From: Botryllus schlosseri
Taxonomy: Eukaryota
Direction: 5' to 3'
Assembly (NCBI GenBank): GCA_051294905.1
Contig: CM119371.1
Location: 18,230,001-18,294,000, forward strand
DNA length: 64,000 nucleotides
The position numbers were made by a program, and so were the translations under genes. Below the pieces are notes generated by a model. That model did no database searches. It saw nothing but the letters and a program-made list of their open reading frames with translations, and was not told where the DNA came from. Below are positions 384 through 49,720 of the stretch, one piece after another (position 1 is the stretch's first letter; each line of letters starts with the position of its first letter).

Positions 384-1597
384 CGTTTTATTATTGGCTG
401 GAGAAGTTGAAGGAACACTGCGGAACTGCAGCTAAGATATTATTCGAATTTGCCCATTGCCCCATCAACCTGATCATCAACACTAATAGATTCAATTATT
501 ATTATTAGCTGGTTTGGAATAAATTGCACACTGCAGCAGATTTCACACCAACTTGCACTTTGAAACTGCTTGAGTCAATTGAGGTAAAACGTACTCAGCT
601 GCAGAGTTGCGGCATTATGCTCGAAATCAATCACTACCATATACTTAGACCACAGCATATATATTTCCATTGATTAGGCTGTCACCACCATAAAGCCATT
701 GAACCATCACCTTGACTCACACGAGAAGGATGCTCACTGCTCAGTAAACAAGTACACCTGCTTTTTCGAAGGACTTTTTTGCCTACACAGATGCGTATGT
801 TCCATACATCGCGGTTGCCATACCGTCCTTATTTATAAGATTTGTCCTTATTTTGAAGGGCCACGTCTTAGAAAACTCAACTGTACTTATTTCCAAGAAA
901 TATCCTTTTTTTCGACTTGCATAATATTCTAAATTTATGCTTTTGCATCGAGATTTTATGACATTATAAGTGAACGGAGCGAATCAGCCAATGAATCGCA
1001 AAATAATTTCAAAAATCAAACTATAGAGTATGACTGGAGTGACGACTCGATTGTTCTCCCATTGTTAGCCGGCAGAATGGTCACGGTCAGATGGATCCAC
1101 CCAAAACAGGATAGCTCAGTGCTTGTTTCAATGGCGTTCAAGGCGATTCGTCGTGTATTTCTTGAAGTTGCGTCGGAATTAGTTAGACAGTTCAACATTT
1201 AGGTAGCGGTGGCGAGTCGTTATGACTAGTGAATAATACTGTGTAGCCTATGTTACATTTCTCACGAGATTGATGTGATATTGTGGCTTTGATCCTTTGT
1301 AGAGTTTGCTACGTATATGAATAATGAATATGATGACGGAAGGTATAGAATATCTGGTTCGTGTGCATTGGCTATTGTGAGATGAACTCATGGAAAGAAA
1401 GACTGAAGAATACTACAAAGTGAACAAGTGGAAAGATCTTGAACTATACCGATATGCAATTCACAATATCGTTGATTGAAAATATGTCCTATATTAACTG
1501 AAGAAACTCGAGAATGAATATAACAAATAATATTGCAACTGTCTTGTAGTCTTATATAATGCCTGTCCGATAACCGCAGAAACTTGAGTATGACTAG

Positions 1598-3289
1598 CAG
1601 GACAGTAACTGCCGCACCCCAAACCCCCAATTGGGGGGGCGAGCTCAAAGGGGGTTCCAAATTATTTCGCGAATTAGCATAAATTATTGGGTATTTTTCA
1701 AAAATTTATGCAACTTTTTCAAAAAATTTTCGCGCTGCGTGTGATTTCAAGTTGCCAACTTTCTTAGTTATTTGGTAGCCTACTCTTCCCTAAGACAAAA
1801 TACGCAAGATTTGTCGAAATGGACATATCGGCGAGACATTTAAAGTTTTAGAACATGTAACATGCGACTCCAAGAAGTGTGACAGAACGATCGGCAGCGA
1901 GAAAACCTGGGCCAAAAAGGACTGCCCGCTTACGCTGACCGAAAACTTCGTTATATATGCAAAATGCATATAGGTTTAATTTTCCATAGGCGCCTAAATG
2001 ACTGGCGCCGAATGTTCCTGTCTTGGCAATCTCAACCTCAGAAGACAAATACCATTCCGCAGGGAAAAATTGTATGCCCGTGAAGAAATACCAATTTGAA
2101 ATCGCGTGGGTCGTTAGTCTAGTACAGTTGTTCTTAACCTTGCCTCCAGCGCCCCCCAAGGGGCGCTGGCGATTTTGAAGGGGGCGGAAACGCTCAGGGG
2201 GCGCTGGGCTCTGGGGGGCGCTGGAGAAAAATGTCTTGGCAGTAGATGATGTGGTGGTAGGACATATCCTTAATGAGTATTCAGAGCAAATTAACACCGA
2301 AAACTTCATTGTATATAACCTACAAAAGACATATAGGTTTAATCGTCAATGGGCGCCTAAATGACTGGCACCGAATGTTCCTGTCCTGGCAATCTGAACC
2401 TCAGAAGACGAATTCCATCTGGCAGGGAAAAATTATATGCCAGCGAAGAAATAGCAATTTGAAATCGTGTGCGTCTTTTAGTTTAGTACGATTGGGCGAC
2501 AGGGATATATAAAACTAGATTCTGTATTTTTTGATATAACAGACAGGAGATCACGAAATGACATCATGAAACGAAGTCATACCAACGGGGCCGCCCGCTC
2601 GAATATGTTCAATTATTATTTACGGGCCCTACAGTTTCCAAGCCACCTCATTCAGCTCTACCGGTAAATCTGACAACGTGAACAGAGAAAACAAGAAATT
2701 GATAGCAATATATTAGCAATTCCCAATATTATTAACCGATTTTATCATGAATTATCGAATATTTTCCCGCCTCGCGCTGGCTCACTACACTGTGGCCCTT
2801 ATTTCGTGACAAAAGCGAACAACGTGATGGGGGGGGGGCGGTTTATCACCCTATGGGAGCCCAAGACCCAAGTTTTATTGGGGGGGCTGGCCAAGTGCTG
2901 TTTCGTTCCTGCGAACGGGTATACGCCCAAAGATGTTCAATTATTATTGAGGGGTCCTACCATTTCAAACACACCTCACTCAGGTCCACCATTAAATCTG
3001 ATTACGTGGACAGAGAGAGGATAAAAATTGATAATAATATATATTTAATCCCCGATCATATTGACCGATTAAATCATGAATTTTGAAATTTTTTGCGCAT
3101 CGCGCGTGTGGACGTCCAAAGCTGCCCCACTAAACGGACGGTGAACACAGATGATGAGTAGCGGTACACAGCGTATAGCCAATTGGGGTCTGGGGGGCGA
3201 AGTCCCCTAGAAGTTCGGTTTATCACCCTATGAGGGGCCTATGACCAACGTTTTGGGGGGGGGGCTGACGAAGTGCTGTTACGGCCCTG
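1598..3289. mobile_element. Non-autonomous hAT-type element nested in the P-like element
   Basis: Imperfect TIRs CAGGACAGTAAC / GTTACGGCCCTG; 8-bp TSD ATGACTAG (1590-1597, 3290-3297); internal ~190-bp direct duplication (~1938-2124 / ~2296-2489), GC-rich palindrome ~2144-2225, older copy of the right end at ~2830-2911. Confidence 0.8.
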
Positions 3290-4249
3290 ATGACTAGAAC
3301 AAGAGCCTTGTGTAATGTTAATGTACTGCTTGAGCTCGACTTACAATAGCCGGAGCTTACTCCTTGAAAGGGTGCAAATCGCACTTAAAGGGAACTCGTT
3401 GTCATTGCCAAGAACACAGGAAGACGTCTGCCGGTCGACATTAGTAGTAAGCCAATGCACCACGTCAAGGTTTCGACCAACGCATTGGTTTCCTTTTTTA
3501 GGTAGGGAACCTCAATGTGGATAGGCAGCATTTGCCACAGAGAGAAAAAACTACCATACTGAAAGAGCATATTGTTCATTTTTTTTTCAAGCCATCTCGC
3601 AAACTTTTGGAAAATTTGGAGGACTTTTTTTGCTTCTCATGCAATGCAAACTTTGCAAAATTGTGAGACAAGATGTTATTCAAGTGTCTCATTGCCTTGT
3701 CCATGACATCCTCAACCTCATTTAGGTCTGAGCCAGATTGAAGTGACACAGTATGAATTAATTTGTTAAAGAATGGATCACAGTGAATTGCGTCAAGTAC
3801 CCTGAAAAAATTGATCTTTTTCAGGGGTTTTGCCATTTCTTTACTGTGGATAACATAAAAGCGGAGAACCATGCCATGAAACTGTTCAGACGGGCTCTTC
3901 AATCCACCGACTTTCTTCTGCATCACTTTAATGAGGTTTCCCGATGGCGCTGCAGATGTTAGGCATGTGGCAATTGCTTCGTTAGCTTGCTTAGAAATGG
4001 CTCCCAAAAGCACTCCACCAATATATTCAAGTATGTCTAAAAACATGTCAAAGTTTTTCCATGGAAAGGCAAAGTATCAAAAGCTATTTACTTACCAGAT
4101 TCCTTGCTGTTGACTCCTCCAATCTCTGTGATTGGATCCTGTTCTTTACCACACACGAGCGAATCAAACATTTTCAAAAGTAATGCTGAAGCTGGCAATT
4201 GCGGCAAACCCAGCAACTTGTTAGCTTGGTGACAGATATTAGAATAATG

Positions 4250-5186
4250 GGCACTTCTTCGTTATTCCCCACACATCCAGAAGTGATCACCATGAAACCA
4301 ATAAATGATTCCCATGAACATGTGAAATTTTATAGACGTCAAAATGAATTGTTTTTCGCGTTGGGGTGGGATAGACGGATATTAGGGTTGAGGAGAGGGG
4401 TTAGGGGGGTTAGGGTTAGGTTAGGGTTATGATTAGGGTTAGGGGAGGTGGGATATTAGGGTTAGGGGAGGTGGAATATTAGGGTTAGGGGAGGTGGGAT
4501 ATTAGGGTTGGGGGAGGTGGGATATTAGGGTTAGGGGTTTGGTTAGGGTTATGATTAGGGTTAGGGGAGGTGGAATATTAGGGTTAGTGGAGGTGGGATA
4601 TTAGGGTTAGGTTAGGGTTATGATTAGGGTTAGGGGAGGTGGGATATTAGGGTTAGGGGACGTGAATATTAGTGTTGAGGGAGAGGGTGATGTTAGGGGA
4701 GGCGGGATTTAGGGTTGGAGAGAGGGGGATGTTAGGGTTGGGGAGAGGGGTGATATTAGGGTTGGAGAAGAGGGTTAGGGACATGATATCCCACCTCCCC
4801 TAACCCTAACCTAACCCTAATATCCCACCTCCCCTAACCCTAATATCCCACCTCCCCTAACCCTAATATTCCACCTCCCCTAACCCTAATATCCCACCTC
4901 CCCTAACCCTAATCATAACCCTAACCCTAACATCCCCCTCTCCCCCAACCCTAATATCTCCCCTCTCCTCAACCCTAATATCCCCCTCACGTAACCCTAA
5001 TATCCCCCTCTCCCCCAACCCTAATATCTCCCCTCTCCTCAACCCTAATATCCGTCTATCCCACCCCAACGCGAAAAACAATTCATTTTGACGTTTATAA
5101 ATTTTTCTGTTTATGTTCATGGGGAAACATTTATTGGTGTCATGGGGATCATTTTTTCGATGTGTGGGGAATAACGAAGAAGTGCC
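4250..5186. mobile_element. Merlin-type foldback element filled with telomere-like minisatellite
   Basis: Termini GGCACTTCTTCGTTATTCCC...GGGAATAACGAAGAAGTGCC; 8-bp TSD GAATAATG (4242-4249, 5187-5194); ~150-bp unique inverted arms, then inverted satellite. GG...CC ends with an 8-bp TSD fit the Merlin/IS1016 superfamily. Confidence 0.8.
4380..5050. repeat. ~23-bp TTAGGG-containing minisatellite, G-rich then C-rich, inversion centre near 4785
   Basis: Unit GGGGAGGTGGGATATTAGGGTTA and variants up to ~4780, then its reverse complement (TAACCCTAATATCCCACCTCCCC). Confidence 0.92.
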
Positions 5187-5996
5187 GAATAATGTTGATA
5201 AAATCCGTCAACACCAAGTTTGCAATATTCAGAATGGAGTTGTTTCACCAATGGAACAGCTTTGGTCACGTCTAGTTCCTCGAATGATGGGGCGCATTCA
5301 AAGTATTTTTTGGTATTTACACAAGCCCTCTTCAAAACAGCAATTACAGCATCCTCAGATATATCCCAAGTACTGGTGGGAACTTTATGATTTTTGTAAT
5401 GTTTTTTCAGAGCTTTCACAGTCGGAAAGGATGCTTCGCATTCCTCACAAATCACACCTTTCCAGTTATCGAGTCCTTCGAAACATTCTTCAATTTCCAT
5501 TTCAGTCAGTTCCTCCCAGTCATCCCAAAGTGATGCAGCTGAATCAGTCATGATACCGATTTCTATCCGTGACGAAATATGATCTAAATCTGGCGAAAAA
5601 TATTACAGAGGCTACACAGTATTATTCACTAGTCATAACGACTCGCCACCGCTACCTAAATGTTGAACTGTCTAACTAATTCCGACGCAACTTCAAGCAA
5701 TACACGACGAATCGCCTTGAACGCCATTGAAACAAGCACGGAGCTATCCTGTTTTGGGTGGATCCATCTGACCGTGACCATTCTGCCGGCTAACAATGGG
5801 AGAACAATCGAGTCGTCACTCCAGTCATACTCTATAATCAAACCCATTGCTGTCATTGGTTACTGAACAACTCAACATATTCATCCTGCAACCTCTAAAA
5901 CAGCCACATTCCACTATTTCTCAAGTATGCAAAACTCCGCCTAACCTACCCATCTGAGTATTCATCCCCCGGGTGCTAACGCAATCTACTTCTGAC

Positions 5997-7362: not shown

Positions 7363-10281
7363 CTGTAAAAGAATAGAATACGTCAGTTATGCAGCTTTTC
7401 CACACGTCACGAAGTAATATATCCTAACTGCTACACATGTTGCTGTACGTCCACGCCAGCCATACATTGTTTTGAAATGGCCTGTGGTAAGCGTTATACA
7501 GCGTTCTATGTTCCTCCAGGTAAATACAGTGAATGCGTATGTGTAGGCACCCGCTGGGTAAGATCAAGGAGGGTAATCATGGTACTATTACAAAGTGCGA
7601 ACTTTGATAGGGATGGAAACGGGCTTTGTAGGGCCTCCCCCACATCTAACTAACCTATAGTACAGCAAGCAACATGATAGACCAGCAATTGGCTCTAGTT
7701 TGCAGCCACAGGGTGACAAGTCTGCCAATGGGGCACCGAGTGAATTGCAATACATACTCGTTTAAAGTAGATGCCATACGACCCAAATCACACCATTGGA
7801 ATGACGAAGGAGACCAGGCACAGCAAATCAAGAGGAATGATCACATTGCTGGTAAGCCAAACATTCTTACTGTACACAATTGTGGTGCCATTACGGACGA
7901 GATGTGGAAACCGTGTTCGCTTCGAGCATGGCAGACAGTTACGATCAAAATCCTGAACAAGTTTTGTTAAAACAACTGGGCAAGTAACCCCTGTCGGCTG
8001 TATAGAAACGCAGGCTACAAACCACCATCGATCACCTGTGACACGTTCATTCTAGTTTCAATACTGTATTATAACTTGGTATTCACCACTACTTGGTTAC
8101 AAATTTACTGAGTTGCCAGGCAAACAGCAACGCTCGACTACTCCAACCAACTACAGAGTATAGTGCTTGTTACAAATCACATGTCTATTACATAACGTAA
8201 CTATAATGATTAAGCAACATACCCTCGGCTTCACCACCAGCAGCGGCGGCAGCTCCACCACCAGAGCTAGCGACAGCACCACCGGATGGAACGCTGGCCA
8301 GTTTCGCTTGTCCTGGTAAAAGAAAATGTGATGTCAGACCACGTCAAGGACCAAAAAAAATGGTTGTTGATCGAACGGGGTCAGAGCCTCAGAACATTAT
8401 GATTCATTCACTTTCAGTCAGGCGAAAGATGGTAATATTTTGTTCATCACAGGCGTTGACAGGACAGTGAGCTGGGTGCAACGGTACACATGGTTAGGTG
8501 CTGGAGTGAGCTATAAGTGTTAGGTAGTTCAGACACTTAAAATGGATGACGGACATCGTAACAAACTTGGTATTCCAACAATTCATGATTCTTGTTTATA
8601 AATAATGACAATTGTTATATAGGCAGAAGAAGATGTATTCAGCATCAGCCCGGTACGAAACTACATCAGATGCGACTGCAAGATACAATGTTAGCATCGA
8701 CCAGTCACCATAAATGCTATATTAAGCATATCTAGTCTTTACAAATACTGTACCAAACCACTCAATTACCATGAAAGCTAATATTTGGTCAGGCTCCAAT
8801 AACAAAATTATAAATATGGATGGAATGGAACTGTGTGGCTGTCAATTTCCCAAGAACAATGCTACACAAAGTTCATGGTGGAACGTCGTTCGTTTCTACA
8901 AATGTACACAATGTGTAAAATGACAATGGCAGAAAGAATATCAAAATCTCGCAGTTGGATGGTCGGACACAAGGGCTCAAGTGCCCAGACTGGAATCGGT
9001 GGTTGTTTTCGACAACATATTGTGTGCTGTGACTGACAGATTTCTCGCATGATTAGAGAATTTGGTCCGTGTGACAGAATAGTTTATTACGGTCTGATTC
9101 GAGACTGAATTACTTATTAAACAAAACTATGTGCTAGAAAAGACCTGGTATGATACGCCGGACTAGGGTTACGCCATATATTTGTTGTTGAGCGAATGCC
9201 ACGCTTGCTTGCTTTCATCGTAAAGCACAAGCGTTTTATTCTGGATCTGGACCTTATTATCGCTTCGTGACGTTAGCATATTTCATTAATCGGCACGATC
9301 AGATATATATGCTCGCGTGACGCGTGCCGTTGCCACAGATTTCACTTTGGTCAGGTGCTACTTTTAGAACGCGCACAATAAAACGGAACACTATAGGCCG
9401 GTGATTATATCAGAATCCAAGGTTATAGTATATAGATAGAATGGAAATTAATCTATTGTATAGCATGCAAGCCAGCAGTTCTTCAGTCAGTACTTGCACG
9501 CACACTACGTGATAGACTTCAAAGCTGCTACAAAAGAGAATTTCAAGACTTAGTGGTAATGTCTTCAAATTATTTTCAAAAAGTCTTTGAAGACTAATCA
9601 GTCTTAGCAAGCACTTTCAATCATTAAACCAAGGAATAAATTGCCTAATATAACAGACCCTCCTCCCCCAGGGATTCAGTAAGACTGAATTTGCTGAAAT
9701 TGAGAACAAATCATTACATTGCCTAGTATTCAAGAACAAAATTACAAATTTTTTGTAGTGCACTGCTCAATATACAATTCTAGTAGGCTATTCATCAAGT
9801 CAAATCTCAATATTTGGTTCATTGCATGCTGATTAGTTAAAGATACAAGTGAATCTATCATTATTTTGATGCTCAAGAATAATTTATGTTTAGAAACACT
9901 GGACCAGACAGAAATTATGTTGATATTAATATCGATTATTAAAGAGTGGCTTCAATCATGGTTCAATAATCGAGGAGAGCATCAAGATCAACTTTACATC
10001 ATCATATACTTTGTTTCATTTTCAACCAGTGTTTCAACCAGTCTGTTTCAGATGCCACGAGTTCAGACACAATGAATCTGCGACATAATTCCACAAGAGA
10101 AAACCTCACCAGCTGCGATAACTTCTTCCAGGTTCTTGCCCTTCAATTCCTTCATGACAATGTCAAGTTTTTCATCATCTACATCGATTCCGACAGATCC
10201 AAGAATGGATTTGATGTCGCTGGCGCTTGGAGAAGCATTGCCACCCAGGGCAGCCAGGAGATACGCGGCCACGTAACGCAT
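7289..10281 (-). CDS. RPLP2: 60S acidic ribosomal protein P2 (111 aa, 3 coding exons)
   Basis: Exons 10281-10110, 8312-8223 and 7362-7289 with GT-AG introns and matching phases; MRYVAAYLLAALGGNASPS...KLASVPSGGAV...EESDDDMGFGLFD*. Confidence 0.97.
7435..7573 (-). ncRNA. Box H/ACA snoRNA candidate in the last RPLP2 intron
   Basis: Hairpin 1 CCTCC/GGAGG with upper stem CAGCGGGTGC/GCATTCACTG; hinge ATAGAA (ANANNA, 7509-7504); hairpin 2 GCTGTAT/GTACAGC with GCCAT/ATGGC; ACA 3 nt from the end; ~139 nt; ends 72 nt before the 3' splice site. Confidence 0.7.
8223..8312 (-). CDS. RPLP2: RPLP2 coding exon 2 (Ala/Gly hinge)
   Basis: tttaccag|...QAKLASVPSGGAVASSGGGAAAAGGEAE|gtatgt; 90 nt, phase 1-1. Confidence 0.95.
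8386..8454 (-). ncRNA. Box C/D snoRNA, SNORD51/SNORD32 (snR39)-type guide for 28S rRNA
   Basis: GCCT-GTGATGA(C)...TTACCATCTTTCG-C-CTGA(D')...TGAATGA(C')...CTGA(D)-GGC; terminal stem; guide complementary to the conserved LSU sequence CGAAAGAUGGUGA; 73 nt from the 3' splice site. Confidence 0.88.
10110..10281 (-). CDS. RPLP2: RPLP2 coding exon 1
   Basis: cag|A-ATG acceptor; MRYVAAYLL...LEEVIAAG|gtgagg. Confidence 0.96.
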
Positions 10282-10442
10282 TCTGAAGCACCGAAACAAC
10301 AGTTGATGAATTAGTAATACCAATCGCGAAATACAATCATCACTATATTGTAAATCGCATCGCTACAACCACCATAACTACAACATGCATTATTAATTAT
10401 ATAAATGACCAGTAGACACTGAATTAACGAATGTATACTCAC

Positions 10443-10501
10443 TTTTAAGTCCTGATAGACACGAAACGACAACGCGCGATGAGCTACTGAGTCAAAAGAG
10501 G
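10443..10501 (-). promoter_or_regulatory. TCT initiator / 5'TOP tract and non-coding first exon of RPLP2
   Basis: Minus-strand CCTCTTTTG at 10501-10493 fits YC+1TYTYY; the exon ends at AAAA|GTGAGT (donor 10442). Confidence 0.75.
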
Positions 10502-13500
10502 ACGGCTGTTAAGATATTTTTTCTCACGTGTAAAATTTTCACCGCATGATGTCTCGTTCTTGTAAAAATATGGCTCGACATCGCATAGCAACTCAGGATA
10601 TGTCAGAAGATGTAAGAAGTTATTTCACATTCATGTATATTGTATATATTGTCGCTCACAATCCACGGAAAATCCATTCTCACATATAGATTCGTTCGGT
10701 GACAAATAATGAGAATTTATGTGAATAGGGAATTATGCAAACTCTGAAACTCACTCTAAATTGAGCTACTTGAAAGCGATACTTCTGCAGTCGCGGTATT
10801 GCGCGGTATCGCCAGTCGAATAATTCATCTTCGCAATTCTGACCTTGTTCATTTTGTCAGTGTAAATGTTAATCAAAATAAATGGTAATAAATTATCTTT
10901 TCTACGGGACAAAACTTCGTTCATCCAATTTGTGCATATTTTTATCAGCTGAAGCAAGCAATCTGCTCAACACATACACACAATGCGATAAACAAGACAC
11001 ACACTGCGACGTTATGAACAGATAGGGGGATGCCGAGCGACCAGTCAGTTGGGGTGTCTTCAACTGGCATCCACCTCGACCTAGTGCCCGATGTCACAGC
11101 CTTCTTTGATGTTATTCTTTCTTCGCCAGTCCTTTTTTGAAGCTATTTCTTGCATTCTTTATCGTGTCTTTTTTCTGGGCTTTTTTTGTCGCCGTAAGAA
11201 CCGCGACACGGGTGACGAGGAGCCCATAATAACCTCCGACGGCGGACATCGCACCCGAGCCGCCTGCTCGGATGTCGCCGACTCTCACCAATATGCTACC
11301 TCCCCCCTAGATTGTATAAAGACGGATTGACATCGTGAAGAAATTAAACGAACAGCCACATACAGCCCTAAGTAGTGATAGAAACATGTTCAATGCCATT
11401 GAAGCTGCGTATGCATTATCTAATTTGATAGCTGATTTGGCAATTGCCGGTCAAAAATTCCAAATTTGTTAATACATTGGGTAAAGGAACTTTTGAAGTT
11501 GACTTGTCGATTTCGTTGGCTATAACATCACACTGTCACCATGTTATCAATATCTTGCTGTTGCCAGAGCTCCACACTGTTAATGTCATGGACGATATAT
11601 TTAGTATGATAGCTGTACCTTCGTGTAGCTCATGTTTAGTGTTGCATCGGCCGCTACGTATCGCAGTTGAAATTGATTGCTTACGTGGAGATTATGGTTC
11701 AGGCGAATGGACGTATAGGCTACAATTGGCCGGCAGATCACATGCGACGGTGAGAGAGATATCCCTGAGAGAGACGTTGACTTTTGTTGTTGTGTCCTTC
11801 TGGCAATTTTTGTTTTAATCATTTTAATAAACTTCGCATAATAGCTAAATAAGCTTGATTTCGTGGCATTAGGAATATCGACATTATTTTCAGCAATTGT
11901 GATAGTCGTCATCGGGGATGTAGGCTATGATTTGTTTCGCCCTCACTAATTTTTTCCTTCGTATTCGAAGGCGTAGCCTACAGATTCACGCCGTAAATAC
12001 TCGAACCACTGGATGGTAAGTCCACCATAAGTTACTGTCATAATTACATAAGTTCCGAATCAAGTAAAGTCCTTTCACTTCATGAAAGATGTGTGTCATA
12101 TTCCATCCACACCCCTAAAACCGACCGCCTACGACCCAATTTCTTCTTGTAATGTAAGTTTTGCTTCCTCCCGTGTTCCTATAGTGCTAGCCTCTCGACA
12201 CCACTGAGCTACAGCCACACCCTACCAATATTGATCACTCCCGAATAAAACAACAACACACAAGCGTACATAATATGCAATCCTTGCATAGACGAGATTA
12301 TTGAAAGGTTGATAAGGAACTAAGCGATGCAACGGCTACAGAGAACGAACGATTTGAAGTCAACGCCACTAAATTAGGAATAGGAAAAGTAACAGCATAT
12401 CGGCCAAGCCTCAGTGCTAGAGCTAAGCACATATTAATCGCTGATCTTTTGAGGAAATACATTTGAACAGGCGGTGATCGCGAAGCAAATATCTCAGGAA
12501 CTTGAATTATTCAAACCAAAATACAAGAGATTTTTGACTAGTATGCGAGTATAGTATTCTGTTTTGAATTCGGGTTTTTCGCAGGGCGGTAATTGTGTCA
12601 CAACAATGAGATTAGTTCAACAGATCTCTGACAATGTCTTCACACTGAAAAAGACGAATTCACAATTCCGGGTATGCAATTACTGTGAACTACAAGATTT
12701 TTTGACGCACAACTTTTACCATTCAAACATCTGAAAAAGTTGTGAAGTCCTAAAAACAGACGTCATCAATCGCGAAATCGTCACAAAGCTAAAATACTCG
12801 AGTATACAAAACAAAAAAAGTATTGCAAGCGGAATGTGACTAATAGACAAGCGCCGGACCTGCGTCAATGTCTTAGCCTGGATGACAATTGTGGTTGTAG
12901 ACAAAAATGAATCACAATGTCGACGAATACGAGACTACATGTTGGTGAGTAAGAGACTGTGAAAACTCAAGCAGGCTTACATCCCGAAATCGATTACGAA
13001 TTCAGCACTGGAAAATTAGTCACACCGAGAGATACTATCAATTTCCCGGTCGTAATCAGGCGATACAATATTTTCACTTCGACGCTGTCACAGTTACCCC
13101 ATGTACGTTTGCTGCTGAATCAAAACAAATTTCGATTCCTAAACAGATGCATAGCTTATTTCTGAAGATGCGTAAGTCTAGAGGTGGTCAGTAAAGAAGC
13201 AGTTCTGCTTTTACAGAGTACTCAAATAGATTTGTATTTACTCGAATAGATCTTTTTACATCACTTACCCTTCTACCTTTCTACCTAACATTATTTAAAA
13301 TAAAACTACTTGCTTTTTAGATATTTGATAATACAAAGTAGAGACTAGCTGGGACATGCATCACTTTTTTGAGAAAAGTCGTCAGTACTGGCCGAAATGG
13401 TCCTTGCGTCACAGTAAGCGGATACATTTTCGAAAATTAGTAAAACTGGTGATGACCGACCCGATTGGCGCTCAGATGCCGCAAAAACATCAAAGACAAA

Positions 13501-13871
13501 AACAAACAGCATCCTGTCCCATCCTTGAGTACATTTCAAACCCTCATTATTGCTCCCACTTGAAATAGTTATGACATATCTTCGAAATATCTATCTACCT
13601 CTACTTGTAATACAGTTGAAATTTAACCCATTACTTTTACTTCTGGTAGAGTATTAAAGCTACCTGCTTCGACCACCTCTGGGTGCGACGCAATGAAAAC
13701 AGATGGCATCGCATAGTCCACATAAAAACTGAAAATACGATTGGAATGCTGAATGAAAACACTGAATTAAAATTAAATTGAAGAACTTTTTCTGATCTAA
13801 ATAAAGAATACGTAGGTACACAAGTAAAATGAAGGCAACGATCAACGGCTGACATCTTAAGACATCTCGAA

Positions 13872-14299
13872 CAGGGTTGTAATGACTCGAGACAAGATTT
13901 ATTGGTGACTCGAGTCCTTTTGTTACATGCGAACAATGACTCGACTCGAGTCAATTTGTGTATTGAATCGACTTGTACTCGAGTCATTGCGTATGACTCG
14001 AGACGCGAAGGGCCGAGAGCTTTCATTGTAACTTCGAAGACTAGTAAAGTTATCACTTTATTGGTATTTTGTCTATCAGTACTGGTACTTGAAAAATAGG
14101 GCCAGAAACTGATAAGAGTAAGGAAATTTACTGTATGTATATAGTGGATTGGGCATGCCTTAACCGAAACTGAACAGTGAACATAATGACTTGGTCACGG
14201 TCGTCTGCTTGCCGACTTGGACTCAACTTGACTCGAGTCAAAACTATAAATGTAGGGTTGACTTGTGACTCGGAACCTTGTGACTTGGTTACAACCCTG
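13872..14299. mobile_element. hAT-type MITE family with GACTCGAGTC subterminal repeats
   Basis: TIR CAGGGTTGTAA/TTACAACCCTG; degenerate TSD ATCTCGAA/GTCTCAAA; further copies at 19868-20381, 26003-26445, 26582-27051 and an older copy ending at ~27713. Confidence 0.85.
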
Positions 14300-20600: not shown

Positions 20601-23600
20601 GCGTTTCACGCCGTGATTTCCAGGCGTTGTTTTAGGATAGGCCTTTGAAAATTAACATTTTGCAGTGTAAAAGTCATTCACCCTAGGTTCGTTGGGGGCG
20701 GCGGCTGCTGCTGCTTCTGCTGCTCAAGCTGAAGCCTCTTGAACTTCATGTATTCGTCCACATCCTCGTACATGTCTTCACCCTGATATCACGAAAAACG
20801 GGAATTACAAAAGAGAACAGTGATCAATACGTGGACACGGTCTGCAAATATTTAACATCTACTCCTGCATTAGTTGAAGTAACACTGTAAATCTCTGCTC
20901 AATTACAGATGGAAGTAGCAATTTCAAAGACATGTCCAAACTACATCAAGGGTGTGAATAATACTTAAGATAGCGTAATGGTGGAGCGTCCGGCTTCTTG
21001 ATCGGTGAATCGTGGGTTCAATCCCCGGCCGGGTCAGACAAAAGACCTGATTAGTAACACTGGTATCCATGACTCAGCTCAACATTACCGGGATACCACG
21101 AAGGGGTGGTGCAAGACCTAAAAAGCTGTACAAGGCTATATCTTCACCTTCCTTGTCCAGCGGCTCAAGCACATCATGCACTCACGGCATGCATACGCAC
21201 AGACCGCGTGTACTTACATCATGAGCCTGTGTGTATGCCGCAAAAAAGGTTGCCCGACATATCAACTTGCGACACAATGGAAGACGAGAGTCGAGCATGG
21301 GACACTTCAGCATGTGACTTTATGACCCAAAAACTTACCCTACCCGAAACATTATCCTCCAAACCTAACCCTAACCCAACAATAAATCCATCCCTAACCC
21401 ACCCCAACCCGTAATTTAACCCACATGCTCATGTGCCGCATGCTCATTAGGGGTATTCACAAATGACTTTTTTCCTCAAATTGTAATGGCTACTTGATAA
21501 AATTGTTAGGTTACCTAATTTAAGCCTACACACAGAATTTGGTTCAATTCCAGCCAGCAGCCGCATTGCTACAGAAGATAGTTTCTATTTATTATGCAAA
21601 AATAATTAAACAAAAATGTCAAAATTCTCTGTTCACCCCGTGAAAGTGTTAGGTTGTCTATGGACACGATGTTCACCAAATTTGCCTCAATTCCAACCAG
21701 TGGAAGCGGAGTTATTGCCGTCGAAACCTTTGGATTTGAATAAAATAGTATTTACAGTGGGCACAACTATAATAAATAATTAAAGAATTGGTCACCGTAA
21801 ATACTATTTTATTGATAATCCAAATTTTTCGACCACAATAACTTCGCTTCAACTGGTTGGAATTGCGCCAAATTTGGTGTGTATCATCTCTACTGACAGC
21901 CTAACAATTCTGTGGGTCGGCAGAAAATTCTAATTTTCTGATTGATTTTATTTTTTTATATAATAAATACCAAGCTCTCTACTGCAAGAACTTTGCTTCT
22001 ACTGGTTGGAATTGAGTCAAATTTGGTGTGCAGCGATTTTTTAGCCAACATATTACTTTTATCAAGTAGCCAGTGAAATCTGAAGAAAAATTTTTTTATA
22101 AACAGGATTATTGTCGACGGACCCACAAAAACATCAAGAACAGAAATATGCTACGCTATGCTACGTTTTGACATGCCTTAGAACAGTGGTTCTAAACCTT
22201 TTTGGACCGTCACGTACCTCCGCGAACCCCCATAAATTTTGGTTCAAATTTAGGTCACTTATCGTGCAATTGTCATCTGTCCGGTGCAAATATTACTTGC
22301 TATAGGCTGGTGATCAAAAGCAACAAAAGTGACTTTTCTTGAAAATAATACACTATACGTAGAAAACGGGGAGGCTTTTTTTACATAGCGAATTCCGCCG
22401 CTGAATTTCATGAAATACGTGGTCGTGTCTTGAAATTCGATTTGACATTGTAAAAACATTCACCGCTTATCGCCTGTCGAGCGACGGTAAACCAATTCCA
22501 CCGAGATAATTGGTGGCGAACGTAATATGCCTGCTAACGAGTAAAGCTCTTGGCACATATATGCCACAAAAATTGAAAAACTGATTAATTAATGAACATA
22601 TCACGTACACCCTAGTTATTTTTATCTACCAGCACATCTTGTTGAAGTTACTCTAGAATAGTATGGTTATGAATATCGAAGGAGAACAGGGATTCGGCGG
22701 TGAATTTTCACTCCCCATATTTGCACGGATCAGGAGAAAGACTTCAGGTATTTTTATGTTAACGACTGTTCCCTAATTCGCCGAGGCTAACAACTTCAAA
22801 TCAAAGCCGGTTTGCAAGTATTTCGAAGCCAGCCTTACTACTGCAACTTTTTATTTTTTCCACAAACCCCAACAAACGTGTCGAAGCAGCTATATACGTT
22901 TGTATCAGTAGACTATTGGCAATTGAAATGAATTGCCACATTAGGATGTTTCATGCCAGGTCTGTTGATGTGACTCCTGAAGTTCCATCAGTTATGCAGC
23001 GAAACTGTCTCGGGATTTCCCTATAGTTTACAAAACTTTCAAATTAGGTTTTCAATAATTTTGCAAATTCGGAGGATTCGCGGACCCTTCGGTTGAAAAC
23101 CACTGTCTTAGAAATTGCTACTTCCACACTTCCACTAGAGCCCGAACGATAAAGACTTCGCCCGTTCTCTGTTAAAATAATCAAATAAGACACTGAAAAC
23201 AGGGATACTGACCTCAGCCTCTTGTGGAATGCCTCCGTCAGATGGGTGTGCGGCTGCGAAAAAAAAATGATAGAATTCAAGTAATCCTAGGTACAGGCTG
23301 TGTGTACTGTGTCCATTAGGGTTGTTATTCTCTGGATTCCCGGGATTCACCGATTTGATTGATAGATTAGCTAAAATAATCGCTGCACACCAAATTTGGC
23401 TCGATTGCAACTGGTATATGTCAAGGTACAGGAGTTTGAATACTTTGAATATAGATAACTAACCTACAGATAGATACGCAACACCCGCCGTCACGCTTGC
23501 TTGCCCGGAGGAAATTACTGCTCAGCAATCTGAACGCAGCATAATTGCTAATCCCATAGCTCAAATTCAATATTGTTGATCTTATTTGAAAGTTACTGTC

Positions 23601-26600
23601 GCGCTGATTCCGAAAATATACTTTAAAATCTAATCAGGGCAATGGAAACCCCTTGAAATACGCCTCAAAGTCTAAAAATCAGCATTGTTCGAAACAATCG
23701 CAGCGACGCATAACAATCACCATAAAAATGGCCCTTGTGTGGTTGCGATTGTTCAGAACAATGCCTATTTTCATACTTTGAGGTGTATCTCAAGGGGGTT
23801 CCATTGCCCTGATTAGATTTTAATGTATGTTTCCGGAATCAGCGCGACAGTAGCTTTCAAATAAGATCAACTTTATTGAATTTAAGCATGCGGGTCGTCA
23901 GCTATGGGATTAGCAATTCTGTTGCGTTCAGACTGCTGAGCAGTAATTCCCTCCGGGCAAGCAAGCGTAACGACGGGTGTTGCGTATCTATCCGTAGGTT
24001 AGTTATCTATACTTTGAACTTGTTATAAAAAAAGTATCAAAAAGGTTTTATTCAAATTTTACCTTCAATCCCATGTCAAGTTGTCTAAAAGAACGATGCA
24101 TAACAATATTTGCTCATTTGCAACCGGTACAAGCGGAGTTATTGCAGTTGTACAGTTTGGTATTGAAAAAATAGCCTGGAAGGTGGATAATCCAAGAATT
24201 ATTACTGACGAAGTCAAATAACTTCGCTTCTACTGATTTGAATTGCGACAACTCGACAATTTAATGTGGGTTACAATACAAATTTTTTAATTTAAAAAAA
24301 AATTATCATCAATTCAAAATTTACAGACACTTGTGCGTTCACAACTACCAGTTATAATTGAGCCAAATTTGGTGTGCAGGGTTTTCGGCAATCTCATAAT
24401 TTAATCGGCGAATCGCCGGAATCCAGAAAAAAGGGTATTCTTGAACCACCCAAGTCCACAGCTTAATATTCGACTCATGATCGAATTCATGGGAAATTGA
24501 TTACCACCAAACCTAGCTCAAGACCTTGATGAGCTTGCGATTGAATAAGATCGCAGAGAGCTGTTTAAACTCGGGTTCGACTTCACAGGTATCAGTGCGC
24601 AATAGGGCTGGTCAAAAAAGAAACTTTTCCTTCAGATTTCACTGGCTACTTGATAAAATTGTTAGGTTGGACAAAAAAACGCTGAACGGCAAAATTTGGC
24701 TCAATTCCAACCAGTACAATCGAGATTGTTGGAGTTGAAAGTTTTGAATTTATCGTATAAAAAATGAAAAAATATGATTTCAAAATTTTCCTGTCGACCC
24801 CATAAAATTGTTAGGCTGTCAGTAGAGATGATGCGTACCAAATCTGGCTCAATTCCAACCACTAGAAGCGAAGTTATTGCAGTAGAAAAATTTGGTTTTG
24901 AATAAAATAGTATTTACGGTGACTGACTCTTCAATTATTTATTATAAAATCATGGAATTAGAAATTTTTCTACTGCAATAACTTAGCTTCTGGTGGTGGG
25001 AATTGAGCCAAATTGGGTATGCATCGTCTCTACTGACAGCCTAACAATCTTATGGGGTCGACATATACATTCTGACATTTTATTTCTTTATTTTTTAATG
25101 ATAAACTCAAAACTATCAACTGCAAGAATTTCGCATCCGCTGGTTGGAATTGAGCCAAATTTTGTGCGCACCGTCAATTTTTTAGCCAACCTAACAATTT
25201 TATCAAGTAGCCAGTGAAATGGGAAGGAAAAGTTTTTTCTGAACAGCCCTAGTGCGCAAGGATATCGCGCCAATTTTGGATTTGTACATGTGCATTGCTA
25301 CTCACAGATTGCTGGCGGAAACTGCGGCATGTCGTCCGCCGTTTCGTCATATATGGCGGCACCTTCTTCTTCGTCACTGTCGAATGTGGGTCTGTCAACG
25401 AATACGGGCGTCATTAGTCGATACAAGTAGACATTCGCGTAAATTTCGAGTTTCTGGAACAGGGGTGCGTGTTATACGAAGAAAGCGTGAATTTCGGCAA
25501 AAATTTTGGAAATTCAAATTTCATTCTAGTTTAAAAGAAATCGTATAAGATAGACACGTCACCGGAGAATACAGGCAAGTATTTCACGCATATTTGACAT
25601 CCTAGAACAGGGATGCATCTGAACGTCTCACACACAGGAAATGAAGATTTCCAGTTTCACCACCGAGTCAAATCCGAGCCCAAGTCATGGTGTTCACCGT
25701 TCAACTCTGCTCGAGTGATATAGATGGCTAGCATTCGTAACATCGAAATTTTCCTCAGTTTCAACAGTATCTAGCCCTATTTCCCAAGTATCGGGTCAGG
25801 ACTTATAGACGAAATACCAATCACGTGGTGACTTTACTGTTCTTCGAAGTGAGAACGAAACGTCTGTCTTGGCCGTACTAGTATCGAGCCAAGTCGAGTC
25901 ACCAGAAAATCGTGAGTCGAGTCATTACAGTTTCAGTTACAGTTACATGTTTCAGATGCTGCGGTACGGCGGTACGGCCAAAGTTTCAGTACTAGAAAGA
26001 ATCAGGGCTGTAATGACTCGACTTGACTCGAGACATTTTCTCAAAACACGGAATTGCGCGTGACTCAAACCAAGTCACATGACTCGAGACTAGGACGCCC
26101 AAGACCGACATTTCATTGTAATTTCGAAGAACAGTAAAGTAACCGCACTATTGGGATTTCGTCTATTGGTACTGGTACTTGAAAATGCGACCAGAAACTG
26201 CTAAAAGATAGGAAAATTAGTATATCATAAATGCAAACCATTCGATAACACCAAACAGAGTTACAAAAAGTGGGCTAAACAAGACTTCAACTGGAAACTG
26301 AGCAGTCAACACAATGACTCGGACCCGAACCTCTACTCGCTGACCTGGACTCTGACTTGACTCGGCGGTGAATTGAAAATGACTCGACTTGACTCGAGTC
26401 ACAACTACAAAAGTAGAATTCACTTGTGACTTGGTTACAACCCTGCAAGAAAGCGAGTTGACGTTGAATTGGTCTCGAAAATGAACAGTGAACACAATGA
26501 CTTGGACTCGGACTCGAACCGCTGAGTCCTGACTTGGACTTGGACTTGACTCGGCGGTGAATTGAAAACGACTCGACTTGACAGGGTTGTAACCAAGTCA

Positions 26601-29600
26601 CAAGGCTCCGAGTCACAAGTCAGTCTTACTTTTATAGTTTTCACTCGAGTCAAGTCGAGTCATTTCCAATTCACCGCCGAGTCAAGTCAGAGTCCAGGTC
26701 ATGGTATTATAACTCGAGTCCCACTTTTTACAACTCTGTTTGGTGATTCGAATGGTTCGCATTTATAATATACTAATTTTCCTCACTTTTAGCAGTTTCT
26801 GGTCGCATTTTCAAGTACCAGTATCAATAGACGAAATCCCAATAGTGTGGTGACTTTACTATACTTCGAAATTACAATGAAATATCGGTCTTGGCCGTCT
26901 GAGTATCGAGTCCTATGACTTGGTTCAAGTCATGCGCAATGACTTGAGTCGAAGTCGAGTCAATACACAGATTGACTCGAGTCGAGACATTTCCGTATTT
27001 TGAGTCAAGTCGAGTCAGCAAAAAATCGCGAATCGAGTCATTACAGCCCTGAGTTGAACCCTGACTTAGACTCGGACTTGACTCGGTGATGAATGACTTG
27101 ACTTGACTCGAGTCAAAATTATAACATAACAATCGACATGTGACTCGGCTACAACTAGAGGTCGACCGATATTGGTTTTGACAGGCCGATACCGATACTG
27201 ATATATCGACACACACACATAGGCCGATATCAATATCAAGGGAGCAGAGCACAATTTCACCAAGAATATTATACATTAGGCAAGATTGCGCTTGTTAATG
27301 CCACGGAAAGCTGAACAACAATAGAGAAAACTGAAATTGAAAAGAGTTACTGCTTAATTGTGCACATTCATTGAAATTCGGGATAACCCAAAAAGCAAAA
27401 CATGATACAGAATTGCATATCAGTCCCGAAAAGGTAGATTGCAATGCAGGAAGCATAGTCCTTCTACATTCTCACCCGGTTAAACTCGTCCCGCAAGAGT
27501 GAATCTGTCATATATCGCTCTTTGCGTCGACGATTTCTTGAGATTGAGAACACGAGGCATTGAATTTCCAATATTTTTGAAATTTTTTTAGATGTAAAAT
27601 ATCGGCTGCGTTATCGGACTTCATAGGCCGATATCGATAATCGGGAAAGCTCTAAATATCGGCCTCCATAATCGGTCATGTCGATAATCGCTCGACCTCT
27701 AGTCACAACCCTGGAAAGAATCATCTATCACTATTGCACTGGAATCAATGGACCAGACACTCTATTCAGATGCGAGTACTAAAATTATTGTCGCCAGCCT
27801 TAATCCCAGACAGTTCCACTCACATCATATCTGACGACGGCATCCGTTGCACGGGCGGCGGAACTGGTTGACGCATCGGCGGCAACATAGGTGGCGGCGG
27901 TTCAGGTGCGTCGGCGGTATCTTCGTAAATGTCGTCTCCGGGTTGCGGCACGCTCGGCAGAGGCAGCGATTTTTTATCTGAAACATATACGAACGATTTG
28001 AGAGCGGGCCAAAGCATCAGGAGTCTGTCTGGTGGCTTTGAAGATGATTTTCATATTCGATTAGAATTAGAATTACTGAATTTGACCTAAACAAACTGAA
28101 TTTGGACCTAACGTATGCAAATTAGGTGTTTTTCAACACAATGTTAAAATTGTACCACTTATCTACATTTCTGGTTGGAACTGGCTGTCCTAACGAAGTA
28201 GTTTGGCCTGAAAAAAAACGTTTTTGGCATAGAAACAGGCAACTTTTTACATGAAAAAACCAACCTACGAAGAATTCCAGTGGTTGCAATACGTATTATG
28301 GTGGAAATAAATAAAAAAATTTGTAGTACAACGAGAGATACTTTCCTACATTCTTGGGTAGAAAGTGTCTGTCCTTACTAAGAAACTTGCCAAGGACGTT
28401 CAACAGCAGCAGTTGTTGGCTGACAACAGTTATGCGTACACTGCTGGTGACAAGTCTTGCTTCAGTTAGGTCATTGCGGTACGTTGAGCATAACACCATG
28501 TCCACCTATTTGTTTCATTTCAATGTTTATGATTCACAATGAGCAGACAATGGGCCGTCTACAACGGTAGGCCTATAAAGTAGGCTACGAGCTGTTAAAT
28601 ATCAAATGATAAGTTCACCGACAGTGCAAAATCTATGAAACAAACGAAATGCAGACTTTATAAAAACATTTTGCCGTTTTTTGACCTAACGCTACAATTT
28701 TGACCTAATTTTGACCTTTTTTGACATGTCAAAAAAATCGTCCTAGTGGTGACCCTTTTTTTTTCAGTCCTCAGTGCTATCGGTCAAAAAGCTTTCAGAA
28801 TCACCACTTTTCTTTACCGTTGCTGGAGCTTTCAGAAATTTTAAAAAGTGTCCTCTTTTTCGGAACTCAAAATTTGGTAAAATTTGGGTACGTGGTTGAA
28901 AAAGGTTTGAGGGCCCATGCACTAGTAGTTTGTGTACCAAAGTTTGGTAGAACTGGACAACTACAATTATCTAGTACCTGGCTGAGGTGAAGGTAGCGGT
29001 CTTCTAAAAGGCAATTCGGGCGGTCCGTCTGCTGCTGGTGGGGCTGGCAGGCCCCTCATCATAGGCGGTAAAGGCGGGGGTTCATTACCGCGCGGTGGTA
29101 AGGGCAGTGGTAAGTCGTCCGGCGGCAATGGCAGTTCTTTTGTCTCCGGTGAAGATTTCGGCTTCAAAATTTGTGGCAATTGGAATTTCTTCTTACCTGG
29201 AATTGAGAAAGAATTCATTTAAAATGACGGTGGGCCGGGGCCTGTGTGTATATAACCTGAACCTGGGGCTATTTTGGGGGGTAATTCACTTCGACGTTTT
29301 TTGTATACCGGTACTTATAACTCTGCCTGAAGTATTTTCAAGCGTAAATATGAATTTAGGCTAACATATATTTTCGCGAGCTTGTATGTATTTCATTTCA
29401 CTTAACACACTATGCCTGCTGCTATATCATGGTAAACATTAGTGATTATGAACAACAGGGCCGAATGTAGTTTAGTGCTGGCAAATTGCACGACAACAAG
29501 GGATGTCTAAGTTCATCTTTACACCTATAATGCAGTAACAATATCGTTGAAATATAGTTTTTAGCATTGGAGAGTGCAGCGGTCTAGTCTGAAATCAACA

Positions 29601-32600: not shown

Positions 32601-35600
32601 AGAATCAGAATTATAGGCCTAGCTATACAGTTTTTGGTCCAAATTAGACTAGAATTAAAATGATTACTAGGCCTACACAGTTTATTTCCAAATAAGATTA
32701 AAATCATAATAATATCTGAACAGGTTTTTCCAAATTAGACTAGAATTAAAATTATTGCTAAGCCTGCACAGGTTTTTCCGACTAAGATTATTAAAATTGT
32801 AATAATAGCTAAACAGGTTTTTCCAGATTAGATTAGAATTAGAATTTCTGAAGTCACCAAAACCAGGAAATTGAATGAACTTCAGTCCGTATCAAAGCAG
32901 AGCTCATCATCTCGAGCACGGGAATGACAAATGTCTGTACGCCGTACTGCAAACTTGGCTCGTTTCGCACTATACAGTTCTCCCGTAGCATTTTCAGGGA
33001 AACCAGAAATTAGATTAGAATTGAGAATAAAAATTTAAGATTGAAATTGGTTGGATTGAGATTGAAAATTTTCACAAATTAGATTAGAATTGGATTATCG
33101 TCATTTCGATCCAGTTAGTCTGATGATCCAGATGTCCAAGTCTACACTGATGCCGCTATTCAACAATAAATAAGTGAGCTGAATAACGGTTTGATCAAGA
33201 TAGTGGATCAGGGGCCAAATGAAAAGCAGAAAATATGTTGGCGGTCAGAGTAAAAAAATTTAACTATATTCTCTGGGGTATTAATCATATTTCTAAATTG
33301 AAAGCGGTGAATCACAGTGTTAATAAATGCTGCTCAGTGATTGTGTCGATATTAGGTAGTGATAAAGTGACGATTAATTAACGAAAATGACATGCCTGTT
33401 CGTCCTAATGGGTGATGATGACTCATATCAGTCACAAGCATTGATTGACTTGTTTTACGAATTAGGTATTTGGAAGCACAGGCCGTGTAATTCGTAATGT
33501 GACCATGACAACAAAGAAAGTTTGAAATAAACTATATGTAAAGAGTGTGTTCTTGTGACTTCAATTGTTACGGCATACTTACCTACCTTTATTTTGAATA
33601 TGAATTACGCATGCGAGGTACTAGGCTGCGTAATGACGGCACATTAATGAACGGGCTTCAAAGTAAACCAATTTGTGGTTCAGTTTATACAGCCTATGGT
33701 TTTTGTCTACGCAGCAACATTCTAAAGTATGTTTTATCTTTTGAATCCCAAAGCGACTTTTGGCGGGCCGCTCAGAACTGCTCCGCGGGCCGCAGTTTGC
33801 TCAGGGTTTGTAGTAGACGATGCAGAAAAAAATACATTGCGGACGTACAAAATATTTGCAGAAAAAACAAGGCTCACTCACCCTTTGTCGGCAGCACCAC
33901 GTGCGGCGGCTTCGATTGCTTGATGGGCGCGGGCTCGGAATATTTCTCTGGCGGAATCCGTAGCCTAGGCGGGACACCGTTGACTTTCGTGGGCGTGTCA
34001 GGAAACATTGCAGGCGGCGGTGGTAAGCTGCCAACTGTGAAGAAAACTGTTTTACAAATCCTTGCCAAAAAAAAAGTACTTGTGTTTCGGAGAATCCACG
34101 AATTTCCCAGGGGCCATAGGGGAATTTATAGAGTCTTCATGACACCAAAGGAGTTCAGTAATGAAGTACTTCTACTTATTCAGAGTACTCAACTAGCACT
34201 AAATACTCAAGTGAGGATGTTTTTTGACTGCTCCCTCTTCCTTCTTGAACAGTTTTTTATCAAGAACGGCTATTTAGTTTCTGAATACTCTATTCAATTA
34301 TTCATATTGAAATGAACCCGAATATTTTCGGCTGACACTCGTCAGGGCTAATCGTCAGCAACTAGTTGAGAATTGAAAAGAACATCATATATCAACAATC
34401 GTGTCACAAAATATGACGTCACCGGCATGAAATTTTGAATAATCGGCGCAAAGAGAGCACTCTCAAGCCCTATGTTATATCTTTAGATGGTACACAAACT
34501 CTTTCTGCTGGCCCAGACTCATTTGGCGTATTTTGATATAAGTTGACTCCAAGGCACCCAAATGAAAGCGTAAACGGCCTGTCCCGACAACACGAAATCT
34601 TTCGCCTCGTCAATTTTTCATGAAACAGGATTTTAAGAGCTTCTTGGAGGTACAGAACCTCAATATACAATTGCAACAATCATTATTGGTGGATAATCCG
34701 GGAATTATCAACAAAAAACTCAAATAACTCCGCTTCTATTAGTTGGAATTGAGTCAAATTTGTTTTGCACCGTCTTTGAAGACAGCTCGACCATTTCATG
34801 GGGTTAACAGGAAAATTTTAAAAAAATTTTTAATTTTCCCTAATAAATGAAAAATTTTAATTGGATCTGCGGTGTCTTATACTTGTTAGAATTGAACCAA
34901 ATTTGGTGTGCAGCGTTTTTTAGGGTAACCCGACAATTTAATCAGTGAATGGCTGGAATCCAGAAAAAAGGTTCATTTTTATTGCACAGCAATCTAAGGC
35001 CAAAAATTCTGCCATTGGCAAGCATCTGTTGGATAATCCCCCTTGTGAGAAAAATTATACGACAGATTTCGCGCCGTCGGAAGGGGCCGTTCACACTTCC
35101 ATTCGCGTGCCTCGGAGTCTACTTTTATCAAAATACACCAGCCAAGTCTGTGTCAACGAAAGGAGTTCGTGTATCATCTAAAAATAGCACATTGAACGCT
35201 CTCTTCTTCAAAATTCCATGCCGGTGACGTCATATTTTGTGATACATTGTTCATATACAATGTTCTTTCCAGTTCTCTACTAGTTGCTGACGATTACCCC
35301 TGACGAGTATCGGTCTAAAATATTCGGGCTCATTTCAAAGTAGCAGAAATCCACGAATACATTACCGTATCTCCGAAACGTGACGTGATAGAAAAAACAC
35401 CAGGTTCAGCACCCTCAAATTAGGTATAGATGACCCAAATATAGCCTAGGGCCAAAATAGTGCAGACCGGTGTCATTATCATTTGAAATCATCTTCGTTT
35501 ACCAGGTTTCGATTTTAGACTCGGCTTTGGACTGACGGGTTTCGGCCCCGGCTTTGGGCCTGGTTTAGGACCCGGCCTCGGTGCCGCCTTCGGAAGCGCA

Positions 35601-48734: not shown

Positions 48735-49720
48735 ACTAAACGCCTCGAAATCCCAATTGCTGACAGTAAATTCAAAAAATAACCTAACCATTAATATCGC
48801 CGGTCAGCCCGTTTCCAACACAGATAATGCCAAATATCTCGGGGTTTTACTGGACTCGAACATGTCCCGGAAGAGTCACATTCAGTCCCTAGAAACTAAA
48901 TTATCTCCGAAGTGCGGCCTGTTCTACAGCCTTGGGCGCTTCATACCAGCATGGGTTCTTCTGATACTCTTTAAATCCTTAATCCCATCGAAGTTACATT
49001 ATGGCATCCTTTGTTGGGGGGCTGCCAGTAAAACTGCACACAAGCCACAGCAGAAACTACAGCATAAAGTGCTCCGAATCATAGCTAGGGCCCCAAACGG
49101 GCCTGGCTGCCCATCCAATAAGTCGCTGCTGAAGAGATTTGGCGTCCTAAACATAGAAGATATGCGGAAACTAGAAATCGCCAAGTTTATGTATCAGTTT
49201 CACTGCGGTCGTTGCCCCGAATATTTCAATGACTTCTTTACCTCTGAATCAAAAGCGCACAAGTACAACACACGCGCGTCCACGTCGTCCAAATATCATA
49301 TGATCGACCAAGAAGATCATCGCTCTATCAGATATGCCGGACCTGATGTGTGGAACAGTATCCCGCCGGCCATCCGGCAGTCGACGAGCATGTCCACATT
49401 CAAGTCGAAATACAAGCAATTACTACTAAATAAATACAGTCCATCCTCAAGATTACCGGACCACGACTGACCTATCGATCTCGCTTCCCATGACATGCCG
49501 CCCTGTTTCTTGTCACTTCCTTTTTCTATACTATCTTCTTTACTTTCATTCAGTGTGCATGCCTCCTTTTTACATCGCCTAGGCCCTAGGCCAAGGTGGG
49601 TGTCTGATTCCATAGATAACTCCTAGTCGCTTCGACATCTTCCTTTCTTTTCATTGTATCGCATTTTTCGTGGTGTGTTGAACTGATAAAATTGCTAATA
49701 AACCAATGATGATGATGATG
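48735..49720 (+). mobile_element. 5'-truncated LINE (L2/Crack-like, CR1 group): ORF2 C-terminus, 3'UTR and (ATG)n tail
   Basis: ORF 48757-49470: KYLGVLLD...LHYGILCWG...HKYNTR...YAGPDVWNSIP...FKSKYK; AATAAA then ATGATGATGATG. 3'UTR-only relatives at ~39520-39790, ~56200-56465 and ~63430-63690. Confidence 0.9.

Follow-up and report, generated by a model that had tools for sequence, protein, structure and literature searches.

The 64,000-nt stretch of the Botryllus schlosseri genome analyzed here (assembly GCA_051294905.1, contig CM119371.1, positions 18,230,001 to 18,294,000; hereafter the window) holds at 1022-5836 a copy of a cut-and-paste transposon with P-type ends, whose sole gene, broken in this copy, is predicted to encode a free-standing C-terminal (tail) domain of P transposase. 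It probably derives by deletion from a two-gene P element and has lost the catalytic gene, a reading to which we assign a probability of about 0.62. On the best reading of the data, the window copy is dead and the family is non-autonomous.

Both ends of the element open with TATAGAG and form inverted arms of 228 bp that differ at two positions (arm positions 97 and 139); in the arm-to-arm comparison the next mismatch falls at 229, and the likeness fades out by ~261 bp. The 7-bp target duplication ATCAAAC stands on both sides (1015-1021 and 5837-5843). An original prediction, made from the letters alone, had proposed near-identical 228-bp inverted repeats and a 7-bp duplication, and both claims hold. 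Freed of its two nested inserts, the element measures 2170 bp. From left to right, its parts are:

1015-1021, no strand: left target-site duplication of 7 bp, identical to 5837-5843
1022-1249, plus strand: left terminal inverted repeat, 228 bp, 2 mismatches with the right arm
1250-1597, plus strand: left interior without an open frame or Pfam match, with plus-strand RNA at 1176-1514 in stranded reads; probably a leftover of the 5' region of a partner gene
1598-3289, no strand: hAT-like non-coding insert with CAGG ends, very high in copy, flanked by an 8-bp duplication
3298-3575, no strand: interior beyond the stop codon of the gene; may hold the end of a plus-strand partner gene, not significant (79 of 1000 shuffles reach its score against the convergent frame of locus L001, described below)
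3576-4036, minus strand: exon 2, with the P-transposase C-terminal-domain fold (~4034-3624), a basic tail and the stop codon at 3578-3576
4037-4095, minus strand: predicted phase-1 intron of 59 nt, GTAAGT...TTTTTAG, with gap-free homology across it
4096-4249, minus strand: second part of exon 1, where the N-terminal helical domain of the family ends; by itself it scores 9.0 bits with the family profile
4250-5186, no strand: fold-back insert that breaks the gene in the window copy; its ends are GGCAC, its arms consist of a 23-bp minisatellite with TTAGGG in it, and its 8-bp duplicates stand at 4242-4249 and 5187-5194
5195-5551, minus strand: first part of exon 1, with the ATG at 5551, an acidic start and a C2H2 finger at ~5452-5384; begins 57 nt inward of the right arm
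5609-5836, minus strand: right terminal inverted repeat, 228 bp, from the arm comparison
5837-5843, no strand: right target-site duplication, 7 bp, copy of the left one

The gene is recovered by joining the minus-strand segments 5551-5195, 4249-4096 and 4036-3576, that is, after removal of the 937-bp insert, one copy of its 8-bp duplication and the 59-nt intron, which yields 323 stop-free codons. The intron at 4095-4037 is of the GT-AG type, starts with GTAAGT, ends with TTTTTAG, and gave the longest open frame (323 codons) among all GT/GC-AG pairs tried. A profile of 11 uninterrupted relatives aligns in one piece to residues 117-323 with 133 bits, spanning the insert site and showing no gap at the intron, and residues 60-170 alone score 11.2 bits against the family profile, the best of 1000 shuffles reaching 4.9. 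The earlier proposal that two open reading frames (ORFs; 5117-5551 and 3576-4046) join into a stop-free 323-residue frame is thus borne out by the relatives as well as by the frame itself. It is likely that the intron is common to the window gene and the group formed by the relatives P0003, P0004 and P0006, since the homology of these three starts at the very residue where the window intron ends and they group with window exon 2, P0002 and P0015 (support 90/100). The gene, a member of a family of uninterrupted ORFs, lies next to one arm and points inward, and its ATG is so close to the right arm (57 nt) that there is no room upstream for a catalytic core.

A search of 1.84 billion proteins with exon 2 gives 18 relatives with E of 1e-3 or lower; eight are uninterrupted ORFs of 277-312 residues. 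Together they define an unnamed protein family of ~265-312 residues with identities of 23-48%, no member of which carries the name of a host gene. The window protein starts with an acidic stretch (net charge -11 in 30 residues), continues with a C2H2 finger spanning residues 34-56, which Pfam scores at 23.8 bits (E 4.3e-5), below the cut-off of 25, and ends in a basic tail, the final 25 residues having a net charge of +8; the acidic N-terminus and single finger had been predicted, and they stand, with the finger under the Pfam threshold. For the C-terminal half, three routes lead to the same domain. Eight of the 16 alignment members match the P transposase C-terminal family PF12596 at E<=1 (on rescanning, 1 of 14 exceeds the curated cut-off), and the family profile, run against the sequences of the PDB, has chain B of the Drosophila P transposase structure (6p5a_B) as its sole hit below E 0.1 (E 4.9e-4). 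The same chain ranks first of 48,161 for the predicted fold of a relative (Z 9.5, root-mean-square deviation (rmsd) 2.8, 115 of 118 residues) and for that of window exon 2 (confidence score pLDDT 89; Z 9.6, rmsd 2.5, 105 residues). Each route is moderate, and all name one domain. The likeness to the C-terminal domain of P transposase proposed at the outset is upheld by Pfam matches in the relatives, the PDB profile match and the fold.

None of the THAP, RNase H and GTP-binding families was found in the window gene or in any family member scanned. Ten of 17 relatives have 109-157 residues ahead of the domain's first motif; in the fly enzyme, the catalytic E531 lies ~95 residues ahead of that motif. 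The N-terminal helical domain of the family, for which one relative gives a high-confidence predicted fold (residues ~54-136 of P0007), had no clear match in the searches. Word-index protein searches, which are weak, returned no longer relatives, and a near-length protein search found only two members already known; Atlas gave no usable match and Rfam none. The original prediction had described the gene as a short non-catalytic accessory or regulator gene, of which the first half agrees with these results; the role of accessory or regulator fits them less well than that of a separately encoded piece of the transposase.

The ends and the target duplication fit the P superfamily. Membership of Kolobok, whose target duplication is TTAA, does not agree with the ATCAAAC duplication. 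The element has terminal inverted repeats (228 bp), a duplication of 7 bp in the one insertion at hand, and a P-type C-terminal domain, identified by moderate routes with one common best match. P-superfamily duplications measure 7-8 bp according to PMC5199201 and PMC3698922, the latter giving 7 bp as typical of the members 1360 and Galileo. The domains of an autonomous P element, namely THAP, RNase H (DDE) and GTP-binding, were found neither in the gene nor in 21 interior fragments nor in the relatives, and the copy is therefore not an autonomous P element. The end motif of the element does not recur elsewhere in the window and was absent from the viral contigs scanned. At position 1097 (in 1095-1124) and its counterpart in the right arm, about two-thirds of the DNA depth has another letter and both arms of the window copy agree, a pattern that suggests subfamilies or arm-to-arm homogenization. 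A tRNA-Glu(TTC) gene lies on the plus strand at 312-384, ~640 bp left of the element, probably by chance.

Two later arrivals have enlarged the window copy. The insert at 4250-5186 (937 bp) lies in exon 1, ends in inverted repeats of its own and is flanked by the 8-bp duplication GAATAATG; we take it to be Merlin-like, going by the rule of an 8-bp duplication with GG-initial ends, to which it conforms, with no transposase inside to confirm the class. The other, at 1598-3289 (1692 bp), had been overlooked in the original prediction and is flanked by an 8-bp duplication at 1590-1597 and 3290-3297. By the rule of an 8-bp duplication with short CAG-initial ends it is presumably hAT-like, and again its ends agree with the rule and no transposase inside confirms the class. 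In DNA run X5, most bins of the hAT-like insert are 10-60x deeper than the gene. Contigs cross from the flanking interior into this insert at both its ends (one of five records satisfies the 31-letter bridging rule, the rest having 20-29 letters), and it is likely that many copies of the element carry it. Copies free of the 4250-5186 insert are suggested by a 544-nt contig of run X17, which tracks the window to 4249 and then departs without entering the insert, and by a contig of run X15 that likewise departs at 4249, supported by 13 letters.

Some smaller features of the inserts and their sites may be added. A stretch similar to the minisatellite arms of the 4250-5186 insert occurs near 21351 of the window. 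The hAT-like insert consists of paired internal repeats (363-bp and ~330-380-bp spacing) and is extremely abundant in the DNA runs. It went in (1585-1597) right where the interior of the P-type element holds a near-copy of that element's end motif, a putative subterminal binding site, and a weaker such copy lies near 1500-1520. The window copy has seven extra bases at 1317-1323, a short duplication lacking from contigs of two runs, which is possibly an excision footprint.

Several signs point to a multi-copy family rather than the single-copy host gene that would have made the original prediction untenable. In run X5, the summed contig depth of the gene is ~7,900-14,000, against 6-17 for single listed contigs; this depth is no copy number, but it suggests hundreds of gene copies. 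Over the arm, most bins exceed the depth of the gene several-fold, and arm-only relatives may exist. One relative belongs to a cluster of 11 near-identical members, one of which is identical on 25 contigs of another assembly set; these may be repeat assemblies, but the pattern suggests a young transposon or mobile gene. In the single-cell RNA run X24, of which 3% was read, minus-strand RNA prevails at 3549-4113 (summed depth 139 against 14, ~10:1) and plus-strand RNA at 1176-1514 (107 against 2, ~46:1), which suggests two converging transcripts from the two identical arms.

The interior left for a second gene is ~630 bp. The only locus that relates the tail family to a possible partner is L001, a 2-kb metagenome locus with a distant family member (39 bits), where an open frame faces the tail-family gene and ends ~490 nt downstream of it; it was the one locus found in metagenome scans, and the viral contigs and prokaryote genomes scanned held no locus of relatives. 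On L001, this distant member of the family occupies 89-340 and 570-1280 on the plus strand, its first exon being probably acidic, and the facing frame lies at 1769-1900 on the minus strand. This facing frame may be the end of a tail-less core.

In the fly, P transposase is described as a single chain in which the tail domain holds on to both transposon and target DNA; carried on a flexible linker, this domain sits between the subunits and contacts both DNAs (PMC7776569), which marks it as a separable part. We propose that the parent of the window element would have had two genes facing each other, each transcribed out of its own arm by a promoter that, the arms being identical, would have the same sequence at both ends; this would secure equal expression of both genes. 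One gene would encode a core comprising DNA binding, RNase H and GTP binding and stopping before the tail, and the other a protein of the window type that would bind this core in trans and provide the contacts with transposon ends and target DNA that in the fly enzyme fall to the fused domain. In place of the covalent linker, the N-terminal helical domain of this protein would hold it on the tail-less core, its basic tail would reach target DNA, and its zinc finger would add DNA affinity. The derivative would have lost most of the core gene, taken up the hAT-like insert, and spread by means of a core made elsewhere while still carrying the tail gene; the window copy would then have been broken by the second insert at 4250-5186. 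We suggest more tentatively, and at less than even odds, that there is a two-protein P transposase made from facing genes with twin arm promoters, of which the present family is a "half element": many copies without the catalytic gene that still express a finger-bearing tail subunit, able to supply or titrate it in trans and to steer where and how often autonomous partners jump.

A number of observations weigh against a derivative of a two-gene P element with a separate tail gene. No core gene is recognizable in the interior of the window element. None of 21 stop-free interior fragments matches a P-transposase Pfam family, and six-frame reading opened no long frame, with or without the letters common in other copies. 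A candidate remnant at ~3370-3500, compared with the facing frame of L001 at the same spacing, is not significant: 79 and 73 of 1000 shuffles do as well, as do 7 of 91 control stretches, and BLASTP gives no alignment. The decayed transposase coding envisaged at 1320-1590 and 3300-3500 is accordingly not confirmed, and the facing frame of L001 has no Pfam match of its own. On the side of the gene, the spliced junction of the 4095-4037 intron, the sequencing check envisaged in the original prediction, was not seen in the reads (the joints listed, 15 of 494, all lie in the hAT-like insert), and the contigs listed over the intron are unspliced (X15 record 7, X17 record 16), the RNA label of their runs being a guess and their depth profile DNA-like. 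The lower word share of the runs guessed to be RNA, considered as a sign of splicing, was dropped because their contigs are unspliced. The C2H2 finger occurs in none of 17 relatives, though the nearest of these are exon-2 fragments. Window exon 2 alone has no match to PF12596, the Z of 9.6 is modest for a helical domain (unrelated helical chains reach 8.5 in the exon 2 comparison), and Foldseek again puts 6p5a_B on top but weakly (E 0.22 and 0.53). Priming of oligo-dT at A-runs, one of which lies at 3579-3587, in read-through RNA could mimic the stranded signal, and neither AATAAA nor ATTAAA was found. Finally, 1-nt losses at 3625, 3805 and 3940 make up 8-19% of the DNA depth, two of them in homopolymer runs, and imply that some copies are decaying.

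Other explanations account for parts of these data. With the same two-gene origin, the protein could be a regulator instead of a needed subunit, competing for ends or target DNA or poisoning complexes, in which case the derivative would be a repressor element. Truncated fly P proteins (66-kDa, KP) are known repressors (PMC7776569), the family, itself without a core, seems to retain and transcribe the gene, and two of three common differences listed in its exons are silent, which is too few to count. Known repressors, however, retain the THAP end and not the tail, and an old, conserved family (23-48% identity) with its own N-terminal domain is what one would expect of a structural partner; we regard a regulator as unlikely. 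The small interior (~630 bp) with no significant remnant, and the agreement of the contigs listed with the window's layout, would also suit a natively one-gene, non-autonomous family that carries a tail protein, uses the cores of other families and never had a core gene. This we hold to be improbable, as a lost facing gene is indicated both by the symmetry of the arms and by the plus-strand RNA that arises from the left one.

Deletion derivatives are common among P elements, and the window gene might have arisen inside a one-chain transposase when a deletion fused a zinc-finger start to the tail, with no two-gene parent; that uninterrupted relatives have no finger agrees with this. Residues 117-170, which lie ahead of the tail domain, nevertheless match the N-terminal domain of independent ~300-residue ORFs, a relative gives a high-confidence fold for that domain, and the weak searches for a longer protein found none, so that we give this origin even less credence. 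The least probable explanation, and one we consider very doubtful, is that the gene came from the host, as a domesticated P tail domain that was captured and is carried along as cargo. The predicted spliceosomal intron and the zinc finger would suit such a gene, but the cluster of 11 near-identical members, with one member occurring on 25 contigs, is as expected of a mobile gene, no relative has a host gene name, and it would be a coincidence for a gene that matches a P domain to lie between P-type ends. We favor the deletion derivative of a two-gene P element.

Beyond the element, the window contains a 354-codon frame rich in proline and tryptophan at 38070-39134 on the minus strand, likely a host exon, without a Pfam match. 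A 249-codon frame at 48721-49470 on the plus strand, with no Pfam match at 0.01, resembles the end of a reverse-transcriptase ORF of a long interspersed nuclear element (LINE). Other inverted-repeat families, likely miniature inverted-repeat transposable elements, are spread over 15700-37900 (e.g., 21400-25300, 26053-26940 and 34299-38022).

Compared with known systems, the window protein shares with the Drosophila P transposase C-terminal domain (6P5A chain B; PF12596) its fold and the EY-x-G-G-Y ... P-S motifs (fly residues 617-734) followed by a basic tail. In the fly element, this domain is fused behind the THAP, RNase H and GTP-binding domains in a 751-residue chain, and the arms are 31 bp and the duplications 8 bp long, whereas the window element has a separate 323-residue protein with its own N-terminal helical domain and C2H2 finger, 228-bp arms and a 7-bp duplication. 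Galileo resembles the window element in its long arms, and both Galileo and 1360/Hoppel differ from it in encoding one-chain transposases. Both share the 7-bp target duplication, and no separate tail gene is described for them in the accessible part of PMC3698922. The KP and 66-kDa derivatives in the fly likewise lack a working transposase and still encode a piece of it (PMC7776569); they are truncations that keep the THAP start, whereas the window element keeps a complete, separately evolved tail gene. Identity as a KP-type repressor element was rejected, exon 1 matching C2H2 families and not THAP.

For P elements in general, the accessible part of PMC5751038 lists the usual P domains alone, and in the literature searched (main texts, with Repbase reports, subscription papers and supplements outside the search) we found no publication on a separately encoded P tail domain or a two-gene P element. 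If our reading is correct, a natural free-standing tail protein would show that the domain can work in trans, its role could be tested directly by omission or swapping, and it might provide a two-part switch for transposon tools. The analysis also identifies an unannotated family of ~300-residue proteins, and the value of the dead window copy lies in marking the lineage and a derivative with the tail gene only. Two-gene DNA transposons such as PIF/Harbinger, Kolobok, MuDR and ProtoRAG also contain a second gene, which is non-catalytic and in many cases faces that of the transposase, and the second protein of these systems is not known to be related to the transposase. The window protein, which would be of this second type, is by contrast homologous to a domain normally found within the enzyme itself.

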